Source: Scyliorhinus canicula
Lineage: Eukaryota
Assembly: GCF_902713615.1 (NCBI RefSeq)
Contig: NC_052149.1
Coordinates: forward strand, 152,745,383 to 152,809,382
DNA length: 64,000 bases
Reading direction: 5' to 3'
This document shows, one piece after another, positions 20,271 to 58,800 of the stretch. The notes beneath the pieces are model-generated. The model was not told where the DNA came from. It ran no database searches and saw only the letters and a program-made list of their open reading frames with translations. The stretch's first letter is position 1. Each line of letters starts with the position of its first letter. The translations under genes and the position numbers were made by a program.

Positions 20271-20549
20271 CCTATCCTATGCAACACAATTTTACCTGAA
20301 ATCATTTTAAATACATGTATTATTATAAAACTCTACGGGGCGCTATGACATTCAGGCATGCATTACAAAATTGAAAACTGGAACCTCTATCTATCCTCAA
20401 TAGACTATCCTCACTCAAACAATCCAAAAATAATCTATAACATCTTAAACTGTACAAATAGCAGCACACAAATTTCTCTGGCTTGGCAGTCAACCACAGA
20501 GTTTACATTTCTTTATTGAACGAAACACACAGAAAAAAACGGATGCACT

Positions 20550-20902
20550 TTAATTCATGTCAAGGGGTTCGGGGGTTTGGTGAAGTCCGAAAATAGGGGA
20601 CTTAAACGTGTATAAAGGGGTGCGAGAGCAGTGGGCTCTCAGTCGCCATTTCCTGATTCTAAGTGTCTGCACGACACTGCAAAGTATCGCCAGTACTAAG
20701 AGGGCTTCTACTACGTATGACAGTGAATACCAGGTGATAAACTTATCACACCAGGTCGGGGTATTGTTAACTTCGGGGTTCTGTGTATTGCAGGGGTGGG
20801 AATCATTGACGGCTTGTGTGGTAGGGGTCAGGGGGTAGCGTCCGCGTGCAATTGAAGGGATCCCGCTAAGATCCAGGTGAAGAAGATGGAGGTCGCCTTC
20901 AT
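20550..20902 (-). pseudogene. Putative small type-I membrane glycoprotein at the env position (117 aa after repairing one homopolymer frameshift)
   Basis: MKATSIFFTWILAGSLQLHA looks like a signal peptide. One extra C in the run at 20831-20835 joins it to a region with NDS and NNT sequons, a TM segment (YVVEALLVLAILCSVV) and a basic RIRKWRLR stretch. Confidence 0.6.
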
Positions 20903-21416
20903 CTTTCCTGTTGTCGGTCTTCTTCTTTCTCTTCCTCTGGGTTCCTGAGTTTCCGGAGTTCTGTGAACACAAGCATAATATCTGTTATTATCTTGCTTAA
21001 GATCTCATATGTCTGTCTGTCTGTTCTTTATTGCCAATTACCCTTTATAATTGGTCACCATCTGTGACTCCATCTTTTTTTTTTAAAGCCGAATATCTGG
21101 ACAAGACATCCTAGAAAAATACTGACACAGTGCGAGCTGTCTCGCAGCCTGTGCGATTTACCATCCCAGTGTTTGAGGATGTAAATAGCATATGGAGAGC
21201 AACGTAAGGGTCGCCATAAACAAACAAAAGAGTTTTGAACCAGAAGTTCCGAATGGGGTGCGTATGGGGTGCGGGTAAGAAATGGATGGAATCTCCGGGT
21301 AGGACGGTGATCAGTGCCGTTTGTTCTCTACCCGAGCATAGCTGACCAGGGGGCAGGTCCTCAGGCAGGACGGAGACCAGTGCCATTTCTCCACTGCCTG
21401 AGCAACCGGCAAACCA

Positions 21417-21624
21417 GGGGCTGGTTTAGCACACAGGGGCTGGTTTGGCACACTGGGCTAAATAGCTGGCTTTTAAAGCAGACCAAGGCAGGCCAGCAGC
21501 ACGGCATAATTACCGTACCAGCCTCCCAAACAGGCGCCGGAATGTGGCGACTAGGGGCTTTTCACAGTAACTTCATTGAAGCCTACTCGTGACAATAAGC
21601 GATTTTAATTTTCATTTCATTTTC
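21417..21624 (+). mobile_element. Short tRNA-SINE with a duplicated head, inserted in the retrovirus-like element
   Basis: Same family as 6511-6690; GGGGCTGGTTT occurs twice at the start. Confidence 0.85.
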
Positions 21625-21965: not shown

Positions 21966-24900
21966 TCATTGCTCAATAGCGAACAGAGTCGCAAAGGGAT
22001 TCGTTTGGTGGGAGTCAGACTCTGTCATCATCTTCTCTCGGCTGCCATACTCTTGACTGGAGTAACTTTGATAAAGCTGCTTGGGGCGAATTGGGTCCAT
22101 CTCATCATTCCGGATGAGCCTGAACGAATTGTCTCGGTGCCAGAATTGTGTGTCGAGGTTGGAGCTACTAAGGTTTAATCCTTAATCTTCGGGCGGTGGG
22201 TCTGGGTCAGGGGCATAAATGTATGTAATCTCGAACGGGTCACTGGAATCATGCTCGGAATCGCTGGGAGTGGGGCCTGGTACAGGGGATAATCATAACG
22301 TGGTGTGCTGTGGCTGTCGTCATCGCTATCACTGTCGCTGTCGCTGCTGGTTGAAGGGAGAGGCGGGGTCATGCCTCTGGGGGTGGAGTTGAAGTCGTGT
22401 CTGAGGACAGGCTGGACTGGCTGGGGGAGGGTAGGAATGCATCATATGTGGGAGGGGGTGATTGGCTGCTGCTGCGAGCAGGATGTGGTGTGTATGGTTA
22501 TTCTGCGAGCCATAAGCCTTGAGCTGGTTTATGTGAAATCACGCAGACTTGCCATTGGGATATGTAATCTTGTATACCGGGGCTGACTTTGTCCAAAATG
22601 GAGTACGGTCTGGAAAATTTAGGGGAAAGGAATGAACTGGGGTTATCTTGGGAAAGCATCACTTGCTGCCCTACTGCAAACTCAGTGGCGTGTACTGTCT
22701 TGTCGAAACAAGCCTTGCTCTGTTTCCTCCGTGTCCCAAGTCTCACAGCTGCTGCGAGTTGGGCTGCCTTAATGTTCTCCATTAGCTGCTGTACAGTGTT
22801 TTCATGTGTGAGGACTGTGACTGTGGGGCTGGCCAAATCTAGTCCTAATAAATACTCTGTCCCTTTCATGGGGCGTCCGGTCATGAGAGTGTGGGGAGTG
22901 TATCCTGTGGACGTGGATACCGTGTTCCGTAAAAACATTAAAGCAAATGGGAGAACTGAATCCCAGGTGCTGTTATTCTGCTGCCCCATTTACCTGAGGG
23001 TAGCTTTTAATGTCCTGTTCATCCTCTCTACAATACCACTTGACTGGGGGTGATATGCTATGTGAAACTTTTGTCTGATGCCGAAAATTGTGAGGACGTT
23101 TTTCATTACACATCCTGTAAAATGGGAGCCTTGATCGGACTCTATACTGTGGGGGAGGCCCCATTTTGTGAAGATGTGCTCTGTTAGGATTTTAGCTGTT
23201 GTTTTCGCCGTATTCGTTCTTGATGGAAAAGCTTCCACCCATTTTGTGAAGGTGTCGATGATCACCAACACATACTTATAACCATTTCTGCAAAGGGATA
23301 GGGGTCCTATGTAATCTATCTGCAGATTCGTCCAGGGGCCATTAACAGGGCGGGTATGACTAAGTTGAAACTTTTTTGCATATCTGTCCGGATTGTTCTG
23401 GGCACAGATCAAGCAATTCTCAATGTAGTGGGTTACATGGGCGTTTAAATCAGGCCACCAGCAGAGCGGTCTGAGGTGGGCTAAGGTGGGTTCAATGCCT
23501 TGGTGTCCATGATTGTCATGGAACTGACAAATGATCTGGTTCCTGTCCTGGCTGGGAACTACATAAATGCCTTCTTTCAGAATCACACCATCATGTGTGA
23601 TTATTGCATTTTTAAACTTATCATCCGGGGCTGGGAAGGTTCCCTTTAAAACTTCCCTGAGTTTCTCATCTTCCTTTTGAGCCTTCGCTAAATCCTGTAT
23701 GTTGGTCTGTGAGACCTGAACTGCGTGTACTGGGGTGCTTTCGGGGGGTTCCAAAAATAACCATGCCTGGAACCTGCCTTCGCTAGGGCGTCTGCTTTAA
23801 CATTACCGGGGAGGAAGAATAGTGATGACTGTGAACCTTAATGATACCATATTTCCTATCCCTCGCTGTCTCTAAGATATGTCGGAGTAATGGGGCTGAG
23901 GGAAGGGGTTTTCCGTCAGCGGAAACGAATCCTCCCATTTTCCACAGGGGTAGGAATTCTGTTAAACTATTACAGACGTACAAGCTGTCCGAATAGATGT
24001 CTGCTGGGGTCGGGAACGAGTCGGGGTGTTCTACAATATAAGCGATTGCAGCCAGTTCTGCTGCCTGCAAGCCTAAGTGTCCTGGCAACTTTAGTGAAAT
24101 CTCATCTAGGGTGCGTCCCTGTGCGTCCTCTACATAAATGCCGCAACCGGTGATTCTCTTTCCATTTAAAACTGTGGAGGAGCCATCCACATAAATTTTC
24201 AGGGGTGCACACGTGTCTGTGGGCTGGGGTCTCTGGGGTGTACTGCCTGCTTTCCTGGGAGGTGTCTTAGGTATAAATGGGCCTGTGTTGTGTTTTGTGG
24301 TGATGATATCACACTCATGAGTGGGTGCCTGCATACTGCAAATTATCGGAAAGGAAGGTGTGGGTCTTGGTTCTTTTCACTGTAATGTCCCGTCCTTGTA
24401 AAAGAAGGGTCCAACAGGCTGCGCGGATTTGGCTGACTGTGCCATCTTTAAGGCAGCCGCCTAACAATAGCTGTGTTGGGGTGTGTTCAGTGAGAATGGT
24501 GATGGGGTTGAGTCCTGTAATGTAGGCGAAGTACTGTACTGCCCAAAAAACTGCGAGCAGGTGCCTTTCACAGGCAGAAAATCCTTGCTCGACAGGATCG
24601 AAAATGCGTGAGGTGTATGCGAATTGGTCATGGCGTTCCTGGAGGAGCACGGCCAAAAGGATTCGGTCGGTGCTAGCTACTTCGATAGCGAACGGGGAAA
24701 GTGGATCTGGGACCTGTAGTGCGGGGGCTGTGCTGAGTGCTCTTTTTAAAGCATCCATGGCATCCGTGTGCTGTGGAAGCCATTCCCAAGGTGCTGCTTC
24801 TTGAGAAGTTCAGATATGGGCGCTGCTTTAGTGGCGAAACCATCAATATGGTTTCGGCAGTAGCCAACCAGTCCCAGAAATGACCGGAGGGCTGAGACAT

Positions 24901-26166
24901 TGTGGGGAAGGGGCAATTTGATGATTGAGTCAATTCTCTTTTGCTCGATCTCGCGTTTACCGTGAGTGATTACTGTACCCAAGTAAATCACTTTTTCTTC
25001 CAAAATCTGGGCCCTCTTGGGGTTGACTTTACATCCAATTTCTTTAGGAGACCTAGGAGTTCGGCGGGAAGTGAAATGTGCTCTCCCTTTGTGTCTGTCT
25101 GTAGTAGCAAGTCGTCTACATACTGGACCAGACAATCGGGGCGGGAAAATTTTGCTAATCCATTTGCCAGCTGTCGGTGCAAAATGGAGGGGGAGTTTTG
25201 GAAGCCCTGTGAAAGGCACGTCCATGTATATTGCTGTCCCTTGAATGTGAAGGCGAATTTGTACTGGCACGCTTTATCCAATGGAATGGACCAAAAGCCG
25301 TTGCTAATGTCCAAAACCGAAAAACATTTTGACTGGAGTCCCTGTTTGAGCATGGTCTCGGGACTCGTCGCTATGGTGGGGGCTGCTGCTGGGGTTACTT
25401 TGTTCAGTTCCCGGTAATCAATGGTCAGTCGCCATGATCCATCCGGTTTCCTGACGGGTGCAAATGGGTGCATTGTTTGTGGAGGCTACTGATCTGAATA
25501 CACCTTGGCCAAGTAAACTCTCTATTACCTTTGAGATTTCTCCCTCTGCTTCCTGGGGAAATTTGTGTTGCTTCTGGGGTCTGGGGTCGGGACCTGTAAT
25601 ATGCACAGAGCCAGCCAATTTGCCACAGTCGTGCTTGTGCTGTGCAAATGCTGCTTTGTGTTCCTGCGGGACTGCCCTAACCTGTTTGTCTAGACTAATG
25701 GCTCGAGGGTCGAACCAGAAGTCTCCAACTGAGCTAATCCTGTTCTCATACTCTCCTACTGTGAGCGTGGCGAGGCTCATGCTGCCTTTGCCATTTTCCA
25801 AACACACTTGTTTACCGGATCCGAAGAAAGGTTGTGGGAGCTCATAAAATCGATCCCTAGGATTTGTTCAGCTGTCTGGGGCAGATCAACCAATATTACG
25901 GGGTGCTTAGTTGTAATGTTACCTATTTGTATCACTGCAGGGGCTGTAATGTGTCCCTGTTGTAAATGACCTGTAAAGCCGCTGAGTGTGTTGGTGTCTG
26001 TTGTGGACCACGTGTCCCTCTGGAACATCGTGGAGGAATTGAGTGTGGACCCTCCTGTGTCCCAAAGAAATTCTACGGGTTGTACCCGGACTTTGCCGGC
26101 TACTACCGGTCTACCGGACGTGTCCCAAAGGGTGTCGCAGACCCAAGTTGGAGAGCCCAAACACCG
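21966..26166 (-). pseudogene. pol: pol: protease, RT, tether, RNase H, integrase and long C-terminal tail, with several frameshifts
   Basis: Protease FLWDTGG. RT LDISNGFWSIPL, QGFQNSP and YVDD. Degenerate RH (IEVAS in place of TDAS). RH YVDGSS...AAELAA...YSDS. IN HDNHGH..CLIC, QIDYIG, ESDQG and IVERMN. Confidence 0.92.
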
Positions 26167-27896
26167 TCAGTCTGTGCGGTTCATGTCTGCATTCTTTGAA
26201 CGGGCGCTAACGCTATGGATCGGCTTTGCCCTATTCCTATTTAGGGTGCCTGTCTGCTGGTTTCTCTGATGCTTTTGGGGCGCGTTGCACTCTTGTGCAA
26301 AGTGTCCTAACTGTCCACAATTGTAGCATTCTTGTGATTTAGGCTGGAGTGGGCTGTTCCTGCCCTCATTTACCCATGTGGGGTTCTGGTGCGCTTTAAC
26401 TGGATTCATGTCTGCCTGTTCTTCCTCAGGTTTTATAAATGCGGCTTTGCCTTGGACTGATTGCTCCCAAGCGGGGGACAACCTTTTCAAAACCCATTTT
26501 TCATTGTGGGCCTCCTCTGAGGGGTCGTAATTCGCGCAAGCTCTCTGTCCTGCATCTGTCGCGTGAGAGACCAAGATTCGAGTCCATTTGGCCATATTAT
26601 CTGCGAACAAATGGGCGCGGGCTAACTCTCCGAAAACTACTGTGAAGTGTATCCACAAGCGTCCAGCAAATGCTGTGGGGTGCTCTGTTTTCTTTTGCCT
26701 ATACTTGTTTAGGCCTTCTACCGGGTCTCCTCTGTTATAGCCGATCGCGTCCAGGATCGCTGTGTGCATTTCTTGGAGTGTGCCTCCTCCTACATTCTGT
26801 GGGTCGGGAAGGGCTGCCATGACTGAAGGGTCGAGGCTTAAAACTGTGAGCTTCACTTGCTCCTTCTCGTCCAGGCCGTACATGGTGGCCTGCTGTTTAA
26901 CTTTAGCGAAAAACTGGTGGGGGTCCGATGTGGGAAGAAACGGTGTAATTTTTCCACACTCGTCCCTTAATTGGGTTACGGTTAACGGGGTTGTATAAAG
27001 GAAATCTGCGTCTCCTTCTGCTGCGGCCCTGCGGTGTGTGGTTACAGGGTTCACGGGGTATGTTCTGCCTGTTCAGTCGGGGTTGGGGTGCTCTCCTTTT
27101 CTGGGGTTTTTCCTGCATACATGCTCCATGTACGTATCTATGGGCAGTCTCATTTAATTCCTGCCAATCGGGGCTGTTTTCCTGATTTAACTGGGGTCCA
27201 AATGTACTTTAAAACCCATTTTGAACGGAAAGCAAAGATTGCAATTCTGCAATTTGCTTCTGGCACTTTGCATGGTCTACGGAGCTCTGCCTTTCCTCGT
27301 CGTGGAAGTGTGGAGTGCTCGTAGGGCTGCTTTTAAATCATTACACTGTTTCTGCAATTTCTCTACCTGTTGCTCGGTTTCTTGTCTAACCAAGACCGCA
27401 CGTTGTGTGTCCTGATAGGCCTTATCGTATTGGGTTTGGAAACTATTCAAATGCGCGAGACAAGACTGGTGTGCCTTCTTGGCATCATACACCTCTCTGT
27501 CCCTCACTGCTAACTGCTCTCTTAACTCCTTATTCTCCTCAACTTCACTCACATCTACCTCACTATTTCTGTCTCTCTCCTCAATCTCTCTACGGAGCAT
27601 CTTAACGACCTCCTCTGTGCCTCGCAATTGTGCCAGACAGGACACGATAGCCATCAGCTTGCGAGCTTTCCCTAAGCTCTTCTTGCGAATCTCTGACAGG
27701 TTCTCCCACCAAGTATGCCCTATACTTCCGGGACCTGTTTCGTTATTGGCGCAGAATTCGCTCCAAAGGGGCCATCCTTTCCCTTTGAGATATTTTCTGA
27801 TCTCATCTTCCCATACGGGACACTGTCCTACTCTACTGGTCGCTGCGACCTCAAATTCCTGGGGGTTCATAAGCATTCCATTGCCTTCATTGCCAT
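26167..27896 (-). pseudogene. gag: gag (N-terminal coiled coil, capsid-like region, one CCHC knuckle), frameshifted
   Basis: ORFs 27277-27876 (heptad-rich ELREQL...VEKLQKQCNDLKAAL) and 26167-27054 (RQKKTEHPTAFAGRL; CYNCGQLGHFAQEC). ATG in MAMKAM at 27896. Confidence 0.85.
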
Positions 27897-28181
27897 CTTC
27901 TCTATCTAGGTTCCCTACTGAATTTGGAACAGGGGGTGATAAAGTGGTGATGTAAACACGGGTATGGCTTACGCCAATTTCCAGCCTACAAAACTCCCGA
28001 CAGTTTTACGCAACAAAATCTCTCAGGTTTAGCTTATATCCCTGTTAGTACGCATGCATTAACACACTTCCGAATTCTGGAGGCTTGATCAGTATTGTTC
28101 TTACGCTTGTGGTTTTTCTGTTTCTAATTGGATTCTCAATTCAAATTTGGGTTCTCTCGGAGCGGTTAGGCCACTTCTAAA

Positions 28182-28203
28182 TCGAGTCCCGGCGGAGTCG
28201 CCA
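28182..28203 (-). promoter_or_regulatory. Primer-binding site complementary to the tRNA-Arg(UCU) 3' end
   Basis: The + strand reads TCGAGTCCCGGCGGAGTCGCCA, which matches my recollection of the vertebrate tRNA-Arg-TCT 3' end plus CCA. Confidence 0.8.
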
Positions 28204-28208
28204 GTAAA

Positions 28209-29084
28209 TGTTGCTCGTTGTGTTCTCTCTTTAATTGGCTCTGTTTATGGTGGTTAATATGGTCGCCTTCCTTAATTCTAATTACGTTTGTTCAAGAGTC
28301 GGCAGGTATCTTTCGGTACCGCCACAAGGTTCAAAACCGAATACTGATCAAAGACTCGATACACCAGTTAGGAAGTTCGAAATCAATGCTCATTTATTTA
28401 CACACACAGTCAAATATACTCATGCGCAAAACTCTACCAACTAAACTATCACTACTACTAAAGCCTATACTTAGCTTCGGGCGCACACTCAGTCAGAGGA
28501 ACAATGGCCGTTGTCCGGTTCTGAGGCTTCTGGGATTGAGCTGGTACAGAATAGTAGATAAGAGCATCTGTCTCGTAGCGTGCATTGACTTTGGACTTAC
28601 TTGTTCTGGTGCAGCTGCTAGGCAGGTCTCTCCTCGCTGAGAGCCAAGGCCAAGAGAGCAATTCTTTCTCAGGGGCTCCTTCTTATACCCAAAGGAGGCT
28701 TTGCGCGCTTTTGGGTGGGCCTTGAACTTGGCCCCAATTAATTGGACCGCATCTTTATCATTCTTATCGATTTCCTCCAATAAAGGGGTGGGTGCCCTGA
28801 TTGCTGGGCGGGCCCCACGTGGCCGTTGGCCTGCTTTGTTCTCCTCTGGCGCCGGGGTGTCTGCCTTAGTATCGTTTACCTAAATGTTACTCTTTTGTCC
28901 CCGGAGATGGCTCATCAGTATGGTAATGGCTTTGCAGTATCGGTCTTGTCTGGGAGCTATAACTCCAATCAACAGACAAACCTTGCACCTGCTTGCTTTC
29001 TCAGTACAGTATTGTCAATTTTCCCTGCATTCTTTGCAAAGTGTCCATTTTGTAATCGGGACGTGGCCATCCCAGATGGCTACA
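28209..29084 (-). repeat. 5' LTR (876 bp) of the retrovirus-like element
   Basis: The minus strand begins TGTAGCC and ends GCAACA. It has TATAA at 28687-28683, CCAAT motifs at about 28735, and AATAAA at 28398-28393, and lies next to the PBS. The second LTR is not present to confirm the boundaries. Confidence 0.75.
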
Positions 29085-31063: not shown

Positions 31064-34000
31064 GGGCGCGATTCTCCGACCCCCCACGCCAGGTGGGAGA
31101 ATCACGGGAGTGCCGGGCGATTCCGGCCACGCCGCCCTGGCACCCGCATGCGAGTCTCCCCCCCCCCCACCCCCCAAAACGGTGTCCCGCGGTTTACGAC
31201 AGGCCGCTCGGAGAATCGCTGCTCGCCGTTTCTTTTTTTTTATATAATTTTATTGGAAAATTTTGAATTTATACAACAACATCAAACCATGCTAAAATAC
31301 CAACAATAACAATAATGACAACAATCATGAACCTTCGCCCCTCTTCAATGAACAACCCAACATATTAACAACAACTTAAATTAACACAATGTTAAGTTAC
31401 ATAACCGTAGCGAAAAAAAATAGAAACTATAATACAGAACACCCCCCCCACCTTGCCCCCCCCCCCCCCCCCCCCCCGGCCGGGTTGCTGCTGCTGTTGA
31501 CCAAGATACCTACCTTTGAGCCAGGAAGTCCAGAAAAGGCTGCCACCGTTTATAGAACCCTTGTACTGATCCTCTCAGGGCAAATTTGACCCTTTCCAAC
31601 TTTATAAATCCTGCCATGTCACTGACCCAGGTTTCCACGCTTGGGGGCCTCGCATCCTTCCACTGCAGCAAGATCCTCCGCCGGGCTACTAGGGACGCAA
31701 AGGCCAGGACACCGGCCTCTATCGCCTCCTGCACTCCCGGCTCCACCGCAACTCCGAAAATCGCGAGTCCCCACCCTGGTTTGACCCTGGATCCAACCAC
31801 CCTCGACACCGTCCCCGCCACCCCCTTCCAGAATTCTTCCAGTGCTGGGCATGCCCAGAACATATGGGCGTGGTTCGCTGGACTCCCCGAACATCTGGTG
31901 TACCTGTCCTCACCCCCAAAGAACCTACTCATCCTAGTCCCGGACATGTGGGCCCAGTGCAGCACCTTAAATTGGATGAGACTAAGCCTCGCACATGAAG
32001 AGGAAGAGTTGACTCTCTCCAAGGCATCTGCCCAAGTCCCGTCCTCTATCTGCTCCCCAAGTTCCACCTCCCATTTAGCCTTCAGCTCCTCAACTGACGA
32101 CTCCTCCACCTCCTGCATTACCTTATAGATGTCAGACACCTTCCCCTCTCCGACCCACATCCCCGAAAGCATTCTGTCCATCGTCCCCCGCGAGGGCAGC
32201 AAAGGGAAACCCTCTACCTGTCGCCTAGCAAACACCTTTACCTGCAGGTATCTGAACATGTTCCCTTGGGGAAGCCCAAATTTATCTTCCAGTTCCCCCA
32301 GGCCCGCAAACCTCCCGCCAATAAACAGGTCCCTCAATTTACTGATGCCCACCCTTTTCCACCCCATAAATCCCCCATCCTTGTTCCCAGATAAACCGAT
32401 GATTGCCACCCATGGAGCCTCCATCGAGCCCCCTGTTTCCCCCCATGCCGTCTCCACTGTCCCCAGATTCTTAGGTTCGCCGCTGCCACCGGGCTCGTGG
32501 TATACCTCTTAGGGGAGAGCGGCAACGGCGCTGTTACCATGGCACTCAGGCTCGTACCTCTACATGACGCCATCTCCATTCTTTTCCACGCCGCCCCTCC
32601 CCTCTCCATCACCGATTTATGCACCATTGACACATTGGCCGCCCAATAGTACCCCAAAAGGTTGAGCAGCGCCAGCCCGTCTCTATCCCTTCCTCGCTCC
32701 AGGAAAACCCTCTTCACTCTCGGAGTCCCATGTGCCCACACAAAGCTCAAGATACTGCTAGTCACTCTCCTAAAGAAGGCCCTTGGGATGAAGATGGGCA
32801 GGCACTGAAAGAGGAACAAGAACCTCGGAAGCACCGTCATTTTGACGGACTGCACCCTCCCCACCAATGACAATGGCAGCATGTCCCACCTCTTGAACTC
32901 CTCCTCCATCTGATCTACAAGCCTGGTGAAGTTATGTTTGTGAAGAGTCCCCCAGTCCCTGGCCACTCCGCTCGCCGTTTCTAATGGTCGAGCGGCGATT
33001 CTCCGGCCCGGATGGGCCAAGCAGCCTGCCCAAACCGACGGGTTCATGCCGGCGCCAACCACACCTGGTCACTGCCGGCGTGAACAGTGCGCGAATGCTG
33101 CGTGTGCGGCCTGTGGAGGGGGGGGAGGATCGAGCACCGGGGCGTGCTCAAGAGGGGTCTGTCCCGCGATCAGTGGCCACCGATCGGCGGCCGGCGTCTC
33201 TAAAAGACGCACTCTTTTCCCTCCGCCGTCCCGCAAGATCAATCCTCCATGTCTTGCGGGGCACCCGCGGGGAGGACGGCAACCGTGCATTCACAGATTG
33301 GCGCCAGCCAACCTGCGCATGCGCAGGTGGCGTTATTTAAGCGCCGCCGGCCGCGTCATTTAGGCGGCGCCGCTTTGACAAGGGCGCCAAGGCCCGGTGC
33401 GCAAAATAGACGCGGCGCCGCTCCTAGCCCCCTGGGGGGGGGGGGGGGAGAATAGGGGGCGAGCAGCGGCCTCCGATGCCGGAGTGAAACACTCCGGTTT
33501 CACTGCGGCGTCGGCACTTAGAGTGGAATTCTCCACAAGGCCCGACGCCGTTGTGAAACCCGGAGAGGTTCACGACGGCGTCGGAGGCCGCTCCTGGCCC
33601 CCTATTCTCTCCCCCCCCCCCCCCCCCCGGGGGAGCTAGGAGGGCCGTGCCGTAAATCTCGGCCGCCGGGAATAACGCAGCCGGTGCGCCTAATGACGTC
33701 AGCCGGCTCAAACCCGCGCATGCGCGGCTGACGTCACAACGGATGACAGCTCAAACCCGCGCATGCGCAGTTGCCGTCTTCCCTTCCGCTGCCCCGCAAG
33801 ACGTGGCGGCTTGATCTTGTGGGGCGGCGGGGGGGGGGGGAAAGAGTGCGTCCCGTTGAGACGCCGGCCCAACGATCGGTGGGCACCGATCGCGGGTCAG
33901 TCCCCTCCCGAGCACGCTCGTGGTGCTCACTCCCCTCTCCGCCCCCCCACAAGCCACAAAACAGCTGCTGGCGCCATGTTCACGCCGGCAGCGGCCAGGT

Positions 34001-34071
34001 GTGGTTGCCGCCGGCGTGAACCGGTCGGGAACGGCCGGCGGCTCGGCCCATCCGGGTCGGAGAATCGCAGC
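31064..34071. mobile_element. Nested Harbinger-type MITE cluster, including an approximately 1.07-kb imperfect inverted repeat at 32995-34068
   Basis: TIR-like GGGCGCGATTCTCCG at 31064 and CGGAGAATCGC at about 34058-34068. Several arm-to-arm complementary blocks are centred near 33528. Confidence 0.75.
31234..32969 (-). mobile_element. 5'-truncated L1 inserted into a MITE, with a 13-bp TSD (GCTCGCCGTTTCT at 31221-31233 and 32970-32982)
   Basis: ORF2 C-terminal ORFs at 32334-33062 and 31510-32457 are homologous to the 14752 L1. Poly(T) on the + strand at 31233. The target reads TT/AGAAA on the minus strand. Confidence 0.92.
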
Positions 34072-34332
34072 TAGTTTCTGTGCTTGCTTGCTTCGTGTCT
34101 TGTAAGATAGTTTTAAGTGATTTATATTTATAATAATCTTTATTGTCACAAGGAGGCTTACATTAACACTGCAATTAAGTTACTGTGAAAAGCTCCTTGG
34201 CACCAAACTCCGGCGCCTGTTCAGGTACACTGAGGGAGAATTCAGAATGTCCAAATTACCTAACAGCCCATCTTTCGGGACTTGTGGGAGGAAACCGGAG
34301 CGCCTGGAGGAAACCCACACAGGTGCAGGGAG

Positions 34333-38042: not shown

Positions 38043-38633
38043 GCAGGGAGAACTGCCAAACAGACAGTGACTCAGCCGGAAATCAAACCTGAGACCCTGA
38101 AGCTGTCAAACAACAGTGCTACCCACTGTGCTACTGTGCTGCCCAATTTGTATTGGTAAACATTAGAAATAAGGCATAGTTTTAAGAACATCGCATAAGA
38201 ACTAGGAGCGGGAATCGGCAATTCAGCCCCTCAAGCCCACGCCATCATTCAATACGATCATGATTGATTCCCTCTCGACCTTACCTCCACTGTCCATAAA
38301 ATAAACCCCTCTCTCTGGAATCAATCAAATGAACCTCCTCTGAATTGCCTCTAATGCAACTACATCTCTCCTCAAATAAGGGGATGAAAACTGTACACAG
38401 TACTCCAGGTGCAGTCTCACCAATGCCTTGTACAGTTGCAGCAACACTTCCCTACCTTCATACTCTATTCCTTTATCCATGAATGTCAACATTCCATCTG
38501 CCTTTCTTATTGCCTGTTGCACCTGCATGCAAGTTTTCTGCAATTCATGCACGAGAACACCCAAATCCCTCTGCAGCGTAGCACTCTAAAGTTTCTCCTC
38601 ATTTAGATAATAACTTACCTTTTCATTTTTCTG

Positions 38634-38842
38634 TAAGAAGTCTTACAACACCAGGTTAAAGTCCAACAGGTTTGTTTCAAACACGAGCTTTCGGAGCACG
38701 GCTCCTTCTTCAGGTCCACCTGAAGAAGGAGCCGTGCTCCGAAAGCTCGTGTTTGAAACAAACCTGTTGGACTTTAACCTGGTGTTGTAAGACTTCTTAC
38801 TGTGCTCACCCCAGTCCAACGCCGGCATCTCCACATCATGGC
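38634..38842. mobile_element. Penelope-like element terminal (pLTR) insert forming a perfect 168-bp palindrome (83-bp arms, 2-nt loop)
   Basis: Arms 38633-38715 and 38718-38800 are exact reverse complements. 13-bp TSD TTTCATTTTTCTG at 38621-38633 and 38843-38855. Confidence 0.8.
38717..38751 (+). ncRNA. Minimal type-I hammerhead ribozyme motif
   Basis: CAC-CUGAAGA-A-GGAGC(CGU)GCUCC-GAA-AGCU-C-GUG. This gives stem I, the core, an extra A, stem II, a palindromic AGCU in place of stem III, and a UC cleavage site after 38748. Confidence 0.7.
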
Positions 38843-56399: not shown

Positions 56400-58800
56400 A
56401 CACCCGAGAGGCTGACAAGCTGCAGGTGCATATTAGCACTCCACTCCCCACACACGCTCAATCCAGCCAACAAGATGGTAGCACGAAGAACGGCACCCCG
56501 GTTCACCTGCGCAGACCTCGAGACCCTGCTAGACACTGCGGAGGAGAGACGGGCTAACCTGTATCCTGGAGTGGGAAGGAGGCCACCACCCTGCTGGGTG
56601 CAGGTGGCAGAGGTCCGGAGTGCCATGGGCCTTGCGCCAGGACCCTACAGCAGTGCAGCACAAAACTGCACTGCCTGCTCAGGGCAGCCAGGGTGAGCAG
56701 GCAGCACTGCGACCCTGGCTCCAACACCTGCCTCATGCACCCGTAACACCAGTCCCTGGCCTACAAGACCACCAGCCATCCCCTCCCTGTGCTGCATGAG
56801 TCCGACTGCACTTTCTGTCTCCCACCCACCCCCCAGGAGAAGATGGCCCACAACCGCCGGGAAAGGGAGAAGACTAGGAGGGGGGCTGACGGACCTGTGG
56901 ACAGACCCCCACTTCAGTGGAGGGCCTAGTTGGAGATTTCGGAGGGCAGTTGCCCAGGCGGAGGTCGGCATTGGGCAACAAGTGAGACCACGCCCAAACC
57001 ATCCATCCCCACACCCCCCTCCACCATCATGACCCCCACACCACCACCCATGCCACCCCCCCCCCCCCCCCCCCCACCCGCCCCACACCACCCCGTGATC
57101 CAATCATGCATCATGTCATGTGTCTTGCCGGTACTTCTGGTGTCCCCCCACCACCCCAACCCCAAGCGGATAGCCGGGAGGAAGAGAAGAGGACACGGAC
57201 AGCGATGGAAACCCTCGATCCACAGCACGAGACACCCCGGAGCACTAATCCAGGGACAACACTGATGTCCCGACACAGCTGTCTCCAACACCCTCCACCA
57301 TCCCAGAGACACTCACCTCGGTTGGGCACTTTAATGAAGAGGCTCCTGGGGCACGGTCTGGTTTAATTTAATCACCTTTATTGTCACAAGTAGGCTTACA
57401 TTAACACTGCAATGAAGTTACTGTGAAAAGCCCCTAGTCGCCACATTCAGGCGTCTGTTCGGGTACACAGAGGGAGAATTCAGAATGTCCAAATTACCTA
57501 ACAACATGTCTTTTGGGGTTTGTGGGAGGAAACCGGAGCACCCGGAGGAAACCCACACAGACACAGGGAGAACGTGCAGACTCTGCACAGACAGTGACCC
57601 AAGCCGGGAATCGAACCTCGGACCCTGGAGCTGTGAAGCAACAGTGCTAACCACTGTGCTACCATACTACCTACAAATGTGGGTGTCACCACACACGTGC
57701 AAAGATACATAAGGTGGAGGTAGAAATCCCTGAGGGGACAGACGGTCGGAGGGCGGTCCAACCCAAGGGACCAGCTGCCGTCCGGATGGGTTTTGGGCTT
57801 CTGGAAAGGGCGGTCCCAATGATAGTGGAGATTCTGTCACAGAGACAGGGGCTGCATGACGGGCTATGAGCAACCATCCAGTGCCTGAAGGTGCAATTGG
57901 AGAAGCCCAACCATCTGTCGGGGCAGAAGGCAATGCCAATCATGCGTGCCACCCAGACCTTGAGGATGAAGGTATCGGCCAGGGGTCAGGATGTCCAAGG
58001 CGTCGGGCACTCTGAGCGGGTGGTGGCTGAGGCACAGGATAGGGCTGCCCTGACACAGGCAGCTATGTACCAGGGCCCAGTGGACATTGCAGCATCACTC
58101 CAGAGCGTGGCTCAGTCACAGCGGGCCATGGCTGAGGGTGTCAGCGGCATTTCCCGGGCGCTAGCTGACTGAGCCAGGCACAGAGGGAGGTGGCACAGTC
58201 ACTGGCTGATGTGGCACAGACCCAGAGAGAGGTGGCGCAGTCACTGGCTGATGTGGCACAGACCCAGAGGGAGGTTGTCCGCTCCCTGTACTCCATGGCC
58301 ATGAGCATTGAGACCTTGGCCGAGAAGGAAGCAGGCCTCCAGGACTGCAGCGCCAGGTGACAGAGGAGCCTCAGGGGTTAGTTCCGTTCACAGCCCCTTC
58401 CCAAGGAGTAGCCCGGGGCCATTGCGCACCATGGGGGAGGAGGTAGTGATCGGGCCCATACAGGTGACTCCCCCCTCTTGTCCCTGGCGCATGTGATTGG
58501 CTGAACAGGGCAGCCAATAGGGACACCCAAGCAGCAGCCGGGGCCATCGAAGCCCAGTCCCCCCAGAAGACAGCCACCAAAGTGGACCCAGGTCACAAGG
58601 CAGGATTTACAGCAGGCCGCTTCCACTCCTGATGTACCGCCTGGGGATCCACTTAGACATAGTGTCAGCAGGCATAAGGCCAGAATGGCAGACACCCGTT
58701 AAGTTGGCACGGGTGCACCAAACAGTATAGTGATAGGGGCTCAGGCACAAAACTGTACTTTTATGTTCACCGTTTCACAATAAGCACCTCTTCACAGCGT
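56400..58800 (+). mobile_element. Third decayed Harbinger accessory (Myb/SANT) gene, with a SINE at 57362-57662
   Basis: ATG at 56474: MVARRTAPRFTCADLETLLDTAEERR (Myb_DNA-bind-like). Donor after GCAGCCAGG at about 56693. Next exon cag/GAGAAGATGGCCCACAACCG. Homologous to 563-3760. Confidence 0.8.

Follow-up and report, generated by a model that had tools for sequence, protein, structure and literature searches.

A high-copy shark endogenous retrovirus family, env-less in the copies examined, keeps a selected small gene in the env position

Structure of the element

The window analysed here is a 64,000-nucleotide stretch of Scyliorhinus canicula DNA (assembly GCF_902713615.1, contig NC_052149.1, positions 152,745,383 to 152,809,382 of the forward strand). 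It contains a decayed copy of a high-copy endogenous retrovirus (ERV) family, in which no env was seen and a small gene under purifying selection lies in the env position. From the letters of the DNA, an original prediction had described positions 21966 to 29084 as a shark element with a retrovirus-grade pol, possibly related to lokiretroviruses or spumaviruses and lacking a classical Env. All features of the element are on the minus strand, and each coding part is split by frameshifts or stops. From the 5' end of the element onwards, the features are:

28209..29084, minus strand: 5' long terminal repeat (LTR), 876 bp, TG...CA, with a TATA-like motif at 28687 and an AATAAA-like motif at 28398; matches both ends of other genomic copies
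28186..28203, minus strand: primer binding site (PBS) for tRNA-Arg(TCT), complementary at all 18 positions to the 3' terminus of a tRNA-Arg(TCT) gene of the host (L051)
26167..27896, minus strand: gag, frameshifted, with an N-terminal coiled coil, a capsid-like helical region and one CCHC knuckle, its TGA stop in frame with pro-pol (Pfam, heptad score, Gag homologues)
25777..26166, minus strand: protease (DTG; Pfam RVP and gag-asp_proteas)
24790..25570, minus strand: reverse transcriptase (RT), frameshifted, approximate limits (Pfam RVT_1, trees)
24380..24785, minus strand: tether, an RNase H fold of Gypsy type in which three acidic catalytic positions are altered (Pfam RT_RNaseH_2, PDB matches, alignment)
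23790..24200, minus strand: second RNase H, acidic motifs present, approximate limits, frameshift near the end (Pfam RNase_H, PDB matches, tree)
22500..23570, minus strand: integrase (HHCC and DDE), broken (Pfam Integrase_H2C2 and rve, trees)
21966..22500, minus strand: Pro/Ser/Asp-rich C-terminal Pol extension up to the pol stop, open in other copies
21413..21623, no strand assigned: later-inserted high-copy short repeat, similar to a short interspersed nuclear element and foreign to the element; absent here in other copies, very high read depth
20961..20975, minus strand: predicted splice acceptor with its AG ending at 20961, 59 nt upstream of the small-gene ATG (motif in 43 of 80 copies; gene-model exon starts)
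20550..20902, minus strand: small gene, with a predicted signal peptide, a Pro/Ser/Thr ectodomain with an N-glycan sequon, the motif W-C-x-x-F-x-x-W-Y, a transmembrane (TM) helix and a basic tail (unbroken frames elsewhere, selection)
20271..20549, minus strand: 3' untranslated part (comparison with other copies)

The predicted anatomy, namely RT, tether, RNase H, integrase and a coiled-coil Gag with one CCHC, was borne out by Pfam matches and motifs, and the RT motifs LDISNGFWSIPL, QYTWTCL and YVDD as well as the RNase H motifs YVDGSS, QAAELAAI and IYSDS were all located. Pfam matches were obtained to RVT_1 in 24988-25485 (E 1e-24), RT_RNaseH_2 and RT_RNaseH in 24315-24809 (E 3e-19 and 2e-14), RNase_H in 23783-24376 (E 2e-11), Integrase_H2C2 and rve in 22990-23796, and zf-CCHC in 26167-27072 (E 1e-6). 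When aligned with Gypsy-type RNase H, the first Asp, second Glu and third Asp of the tether read Ala, His and Glu; the domain is identified as a tether because all three acidic catalytic positions are replaced, and its best PDB matches are RT connection domains of the murine leukaemia virus type. IEVAS had been read in place of the first catalytic Asp; this Asp is indeed lost, but the register was one residue off, the position being taken by the Ala of IEVAS and not by the Val.

By a simple heptad score, the Gag coiled coil exceeded every one of 200 shuffles. Scyliorhinus torazame is the named source of Gag proteins that are 72-75% identical. A structural model of the Gag capsid was too poor for use (mean predicted local distance difference test score, pLDDT, 48; best Z 4.2), while Atlas features of Gag point to a retrotransposon or Ty3-type capsid and are taken as a lead only. 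CGG follows the gag stop in 13 of the 19 copies with an aligned junction, and the full TGA-CGG is read in 12 of them; this context, together with its being in frame with pro-pol, suggests that the stop may be read through.

Extent, copy number and age of the family

Contrary to the original prediction, the element does not end at 21966. This position is only the pol stop, and the element runs on to about 20271, past the inserted repeat of ~210 bp. The polypurine tract and 3' LTR of other copies are missing here: the sequence breaks off about 100 bp short of the tract. No second LTR was found within the window, and the LTR limits were taken from other genomic copies.

In the host genome, all 40 scored matches to a 601-bp RT probe are 91-94% identical to it (self excluded), and all 150 scored matches to an integrase probe are 79-92% identical, giving at least 150 copies; preliminary candidates from genome searches numbered thousands and are not usable as copy numbers. 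All 20 long stretches retrieved round genomic matches are colinear with the element. The target-site duplication is 4 bp in six of the eight copies for which both ends were found by script. LTR pairs diverge by 0.028-0.083 in 13 of 14 cases; the remaining pair (C2a, 0.20) was excluded from dating since its ends were wrongly set. At the rate of 0.5e-9 assumed in PMC10699275, this corresponds to a loose estimate of roughly 30-80 million years for the family. Here and below, papers are cited by their PubMed Central identifiers. The homologues of Gag and the 3' gene that carry a species name are from Scyliorhinus canicula and S. torazame, in keeping with a catshark host. The catshark ERV-Spuma.0-Sca (PMC10699275) was weighed as an earlier description of the family and set aside, as it differs in LTR start and has an annotated env, a judgement based on its first ~400 bases and annotation.

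Absence of env

As predicted, a classical Env is lacking: none was seen in the 80 copies examined. No long frame is present between pol and the 3' LTR in any of the 20 long stretches. A further 60 copies were sampled from the 150 integrase matches, which avoided selecting on the small gene itself, and gave no sense-strand tblastn match to the post-pol proteins of snakehead retrovirus (SnRV), foamy, gamma, epsilon or loki viruses, the 3' LTR being within reach in 40 of the 60. A crude env-motif pattern flagged six of these 60 copies, none of them backed by tblastn, and one copy (L280) carries an antisense class I env fragment, which we read as the insertion of another element. With part of the SnRV env and a loki post-pol frame as queries, the host genome gave no match to these two queries. 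In addition, neither the family LTR nor its 3' sequence was found within 1.5 kb of class I env at the best 20 of 78 class I env loci of the host genome. Env loss is common among ERVs, and env-less ERVs reach high copy number. Meanwhile, a separate class I-like ERV family is present in the host genome, with many copies that have long open pol and class I env frames, and looks much younger.

The small gene

In the present copy the small gene is frameshifted shortly past the leader. It is unbroken in many natural copies, where it encodes 113-119 amino acids (aa), and was matched in 18 of the 20 long stretches and in 47 of the 60 integrase-selected copies. The N-glycan sequon is found in 17 of 18 aligned copies, and the leaders vary between subfamilies yet remain hydrophobic.

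Selection was assessed in 37 of the 60 copies by comparing variants shared by at least four copies with private ones. The shared variants are 38 nonsynonymous and 60 synonymous (ratio of nonsynonymous to synonymous variation, pN/pS, 0.23), against 109 and 28 for the private variants (1.41; Fisher p=1.8e-10); variants were counted per alignment column and not per tree event, so that the ratios are approximate. For comparison, pN/pS is 0.06-0.08 for integrase, 1.9-2.0 for the other two sense frames of the small gene and 0.8-1.2 for the upstream 3' region, and within the small gene it falls to 0.11 for the segment from the WC motif to the TM helix. The four shared gaps are all multiples of three, unlike those of the flanks. 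An antisense frame sharing third positions with the small gene also reached significance (p=1e-6) but contains stops and is treated as a shadow, and the region downstream, with only seven alignable copies and no shared variants, offers no control. The Pol tail of ~180 aa is under weak purifying selection (shared-variant pN/pS 0.43, p=1.4e-6). The small gene was thus under purifying selection while the family replicated.

The catshark gene models P0061 and P0063 start a shared exon at residues that match the predicted splice acceptor. When 1.84 billion proteins were searched with a profile, five matches came back, all of them catshark gene models with the exon of the small gene, and no homologue was found outside two catshark species. 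A word search found no homologue and Atlas matches were all under 0.9; Pfam gave only a sub-threshold hit to TMEM156 (16 of 18 members), and a viral structure library gave no match. As a side observation, the exon is spliced into S. torazame gene models of a HEPACAM2-like protein and of an isoform of the prostaglandin EP3 receptor (P0062, P0063), altering their C-termini, which points to a possible exonisation in that species.

Phylogenetic analyses

RT phylogenies were built from 59 rows under a mixture model and from 29 rows, together with RNase H and integrase trees, and approximately unbiased (AU) tests were carried out on RT and on the integrase grouping. The references included SnRV (L031/P0018, recognised by an RT identical to the published one and by its length of 10,688 nt), three lokiretroviruses, foamy, gamma, delta and epsilon viruses, caulimoviruses and Gypsy-type elements. 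The loki references (L057, L062 and L065) are metagenome contigs recognised by their match to published loki RTs; the other reference labels are our own, that of the 'Odin-like' row being a guess. In the 59-row tree the element lies on the canonical-retrovirus side of a branch with support 100/99, in a group of 23 rows (92/86) that includes frog and coelacanth Pols. In the 29-row tree the canonical retroviruses are recovered at 99/96, and the group of the element with the frog and coelacanth Pols at 98/94. In RT, the element is 49-53% identical to SnRV and 50-61% to frog, coelacanth and unnamed Pols, as against 29-37% for loki and 35-37% for foamy viruses. The prediction of a retrovirus-grade element rather than a Gypsy one is therefore upheld, both by the RT trees and by the RNase H alignment; neither gave the Ty3/Gypsy picture of an RT within a Gypsy clade and a single active RNase H. 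Judged by its RT, the element is best classed as a canonical ERV, and it is probably related to SnRV. The tether tree did not resolve its branching.

The frog and coelacanth Pols, labelled 'NYNRIN-like' or 'Gypsy integrase-like' (P0007-P0009, P0012, P0014, P0016 and P0019), fall in the same RT clade and share its domain order, and are unnamed as ERV families. SnRV, the closest named virus in RT, shares with the element an Arg PBS, an in-frame stop at the end of gag, and a Gag that combines a coiled coil with a single CCHC. It differs in its large env and 3'ORF, in its use of another Arg isoacceptor, a tRNA assignment that we presume for SnRV, and in its TAG stop; its tether and integrase are distant. 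CmiERV lineage I of the elephant shark differs from the element in its PBS, which we take to be of the Ser type. This lineage was grouped with SnRV by Han 2015 (PMC4422223), and SnRV-like ERVs, or clade Huo, are treated in PMC6001957, PMC4977317 and PMC12193657. The original prediction had named an already described shark ERV family of the same architecture as the case that would speak against it. At the clade level CmiERV lineage I, also from a cartilaginous-fish host, is such a case: compared by eye and outside the trees, it has the same RT motifs (LDISNGFWSIPL, KFAFTF.GQQYTWT.LPQGFHNSP), an LEVA tether, a second RNase H, and a Gag with a coiled-coil-like N-terminus and one CCHC, as the shark element has. 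It differs in carrying a class I env (PMC4422223).

Interpretation of the element and its small protein

We consider it reasonably probable that the element is a decayed copy of a shark ERV family which lies, by its RT, within the canonical retroviruses and likely in or beside the SnRV group, which lacks env and keeps a selected gene of ~115 aa for a predicted single-pass membrane glycoprotein, and which most likely multiplied by germline retrotransposition with the small protein as an accessory factor. Reverse transcription would be primed by tRNA-Arg(TCT), and Gag-Pol would arise through read-through of the TGA at the end of gag. The small gene would be expressed from a spliced RNA, as env would be, and its product would enter the secretory pathway via the hydrophobic leader. 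It may then act at the cell surface, in host modulation or particle trafficking and not in virion entry, with amplification proceeding inside germline cells without an envelope.

Several observations weigh against this interpretation. SnRV joins the group of the element in the best 29-row tree at 79/90, but this is an open fork under the mixture model. The tether and integrase are 35-37% and 42-43% identical to loki against 26% and 37% to SnRV, and the Gags of SnRV and the element align only at the knuckle. The trees leave out ERV-L and ERV-S, fish foamy-like ERVs and a verified Odin sequence, and CmiERV was compared by eye only. Of the 60 integrase-selected copies, 13 have no match to the small gene and only 10 pass a strict whole-frame filter. 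The signal peptide was judged by hydropathy and an AlphaFold helix (pLDDT 64), not by a dedicated predictor. RNA reads aligned at 82% likeness gave low coverage on both strands, with no small-gene splice junction among the joints listed, and the inserted repeat swamped the signal. Finally, an env-bearing parent could exist among other copies, and class I env genes of the host genome could complement the family in trans.

An origin of the small gene by internal deletion of env, joining the signal peptide to the membrane-proximal region, anchor and tail and kept for a residual job, is unlikely but deserves serious consideration. The env position, the upstream splice acceptor, and the leader at one end with an aromatic pre-TM motif and anchor at the other would all be expected of such a remnant, and the related CmiERV lineage I carries its class I env in the same place. 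However, the best match to the SnRV env (E 0.057) is not at its TM, a small-gene profile compared with reading frames from 20 class I env loci of the host and with reference post-pol proteins reached a best E of 0.21, and the search of 1.84 billion proteins led to no env. This failure to find a sequence link to env bears on origin, and descent from a stripped env and an accessory function are not mutually exclusive.

It is rather improbable that the small protein is a cell-cell fusogen resembling sORF2 and proteins of the fusion-associated small transmembrane (FAST) type, by which an env-less retrovirus would pass from somatic cells to the oocyte. The element would in that case be a vertebrate retrovirus with env replaced by a minimal FAST-like membrane protein, spreading cell to cell into the germline as the Retroviridae counterpart of insect sORF2 elements, a proposal that we likewise regard as doubtful. 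The protein of 113-119 aa has one predicted TM helix, an ectodomain of ~35 aa past the leader, a Pro-rich stretch, a basic patch next to the membrane and, at the TM end, a conserved Cys, and several of these features are as in PMC11952523, where sORF2 is also reported downstream of pol in some moth elements. The env position and the strong selection on the WC-to-TM segment (pN/pS 0.11) are in line with such a role. In predicted topology, the FAST/sORF2 characters of size (about 60-200 aa), one TM, a short ectodomain and a polybasic juxtamembrane region are all present. These common features, however, are generic among small membrane proteins. None of the 18 aligned copies starts with Met-Gly, so that there is no N-myristoylation motif; an N-terminal hydrophobic leader and the N-glycan sequon (17 of 18) are present, a Tyr directly past the TM is absent, and the viral structure library gave no match. 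Typical FAST proteins are not known to have such a hydrophobic leader and N-glycan sequon.

The sORF2/FAST proteins of env-less Drosophila MDG1-group elements (PMC11952523) resemble the shark gene in that an env-less LTR element encodes a small single-pass membrane protein with a basic juxtamembrane patch. Their carriers are Metaviridae, and sORF2 is mostly myristoylated and located upstream of gag, whereas the shark gene has a hydrophobic leader and glycan sequon and occupies the env slot of a retrovirus. In CrocERV31 (PMC4299795), a captured nectin3 in the env position is under purifying selection; for the shark gene, no host source gene was found.

Relationship to lokiretroviruses and foamy viruses

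That the element is a chondrichthyan lokiretrovirus, or an env-less sister of the lokiretroviruses, is very improbable. The layout of tether and second RNase H is present but is common to retroviruses, and is therefore no pointer to them. The RT trees place the element elsewhere, and AU tests reject the element with loki (p=0.0022), the wider clade with loki (p=0.016) and the element with three mammalian foamy viruses (p=0.038). What remains of the proposed affinity concerns the tether and integrase, whose best matches outside the own clade of the element are lokiretroviral. Loki integrases nest among those of its relatives at 98/88 (LG+G4) and 92/79 (mixture model), but this nesting is not significant (AU p=0.16, mixture model). 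For lokiretroviruses, an integrase near CGIN1/NYNRIN is expected. The element lacks the loki RT motif RCPFGY.N, and the exact pattern was unmatched in the host genome, which does not prove loki absence. Its RNase H lies outside a loki and foamy group (95/91, with long branches flagged), a grouping also reported in PMC7947760. The Gag of the element has a CCHC, which the single loki Gag examined lacks, and between pol and the 3' LTR there is no long frame or env match, and hence no F-like (Mononegavirales) env as in lokiretroviruses. In PMC7947760, lokiretroviruses were found in none of six chondrichthyan genomes, including that of S. torazame, where the shark family occurs. Lokiretroviruses (PMC7947760) thus share the dual RNase H with the element but differ in RT and RNase H placement, env and CCHC; Odin elements (PMC9040795), of which an RT sister to loki is expected, resemble it in having a dual RNase H and no env.

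Two side observations concern the loki references themselves. The loki integrases (L057, L062) nest among those of the frog and coelacanth relatives (P0007, P0008, P0009, P0016), with true NYNRIN outside the tree, and the ERV clade of the element could, on these sequences, be the donor of a replaced loki integrase. The marine metagenome contig L058 has two RNase H-like domains and an RT motif of loki type, and falls outside loki in the RT trees; judged from these features, it is possibly Odin-related.

A foamy-like ERV is no more credible: foamy virus proteins are the best PDB matches of RT, RNase H and integrase and the target-site duplication is 4 bp, but the PDB match lists hold no SnRV-like entry, so foamy is best by default, RT speaks against the grouping in the AU test above (fish foamy-like ERVs being outside the trees), and the element has one CCHC and a pol in frame after the gag TGA. 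Foamy viruses have a Gag without Cys-His box and do not make Pol as an in-frame Gag-Pol. The catshark ERV-Spuma.0-Sca (PMC10699275), with its other LTR start and annotated env, does not link the element to them either.

Other features of the window

A perfect 83-bp inverted repeat with a 2-base loop at 38633-38800 looks like two short-repeat copies placed head-to-head. At 32991-34072 there are nested inverted repeats in a stretch of 68% GC, similar to foldback elements or miniature inverted-repeat transposable elements. Tandem arrays with units of 15 bp and 21 bp, both multiples of three, occupy 794-2200 and 58175-58300. On the minus strand, 31510-32508 is an open frame of 332 aa with no Pfam match, which presumably resembles the C-terminal end of ORF2 of a long interspersed nuclear element.

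Implications

Since SnRV-like ERVs in cartilaginous fish are already known, the pol layout alone is ordinary. What sets the element apart from known SnRV-like ERVs is an env-less family that keeps a small gene in the env slot. In the literature searched, which did not cover Repbase, Dfam or subscription journals, we found no description of this shark family or its small gene, nor of a large env-less vertebrate ERV family with a selected orphan membrane gene. FAST-type fusogens are listed in the available text of PMC11952523 for Metaviridae, reoviruses, coronaviruses, nackednaviruses and picornaviruses, and not for retroviruses. The small gene, retained by selection across subfamilies and in both catshark species, is a testable case of an env substitute, be it as accessory factor, as stripped env or as fusogen. 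In addition, its exon, spliced into host gene models, may serve as raw material for co-option.

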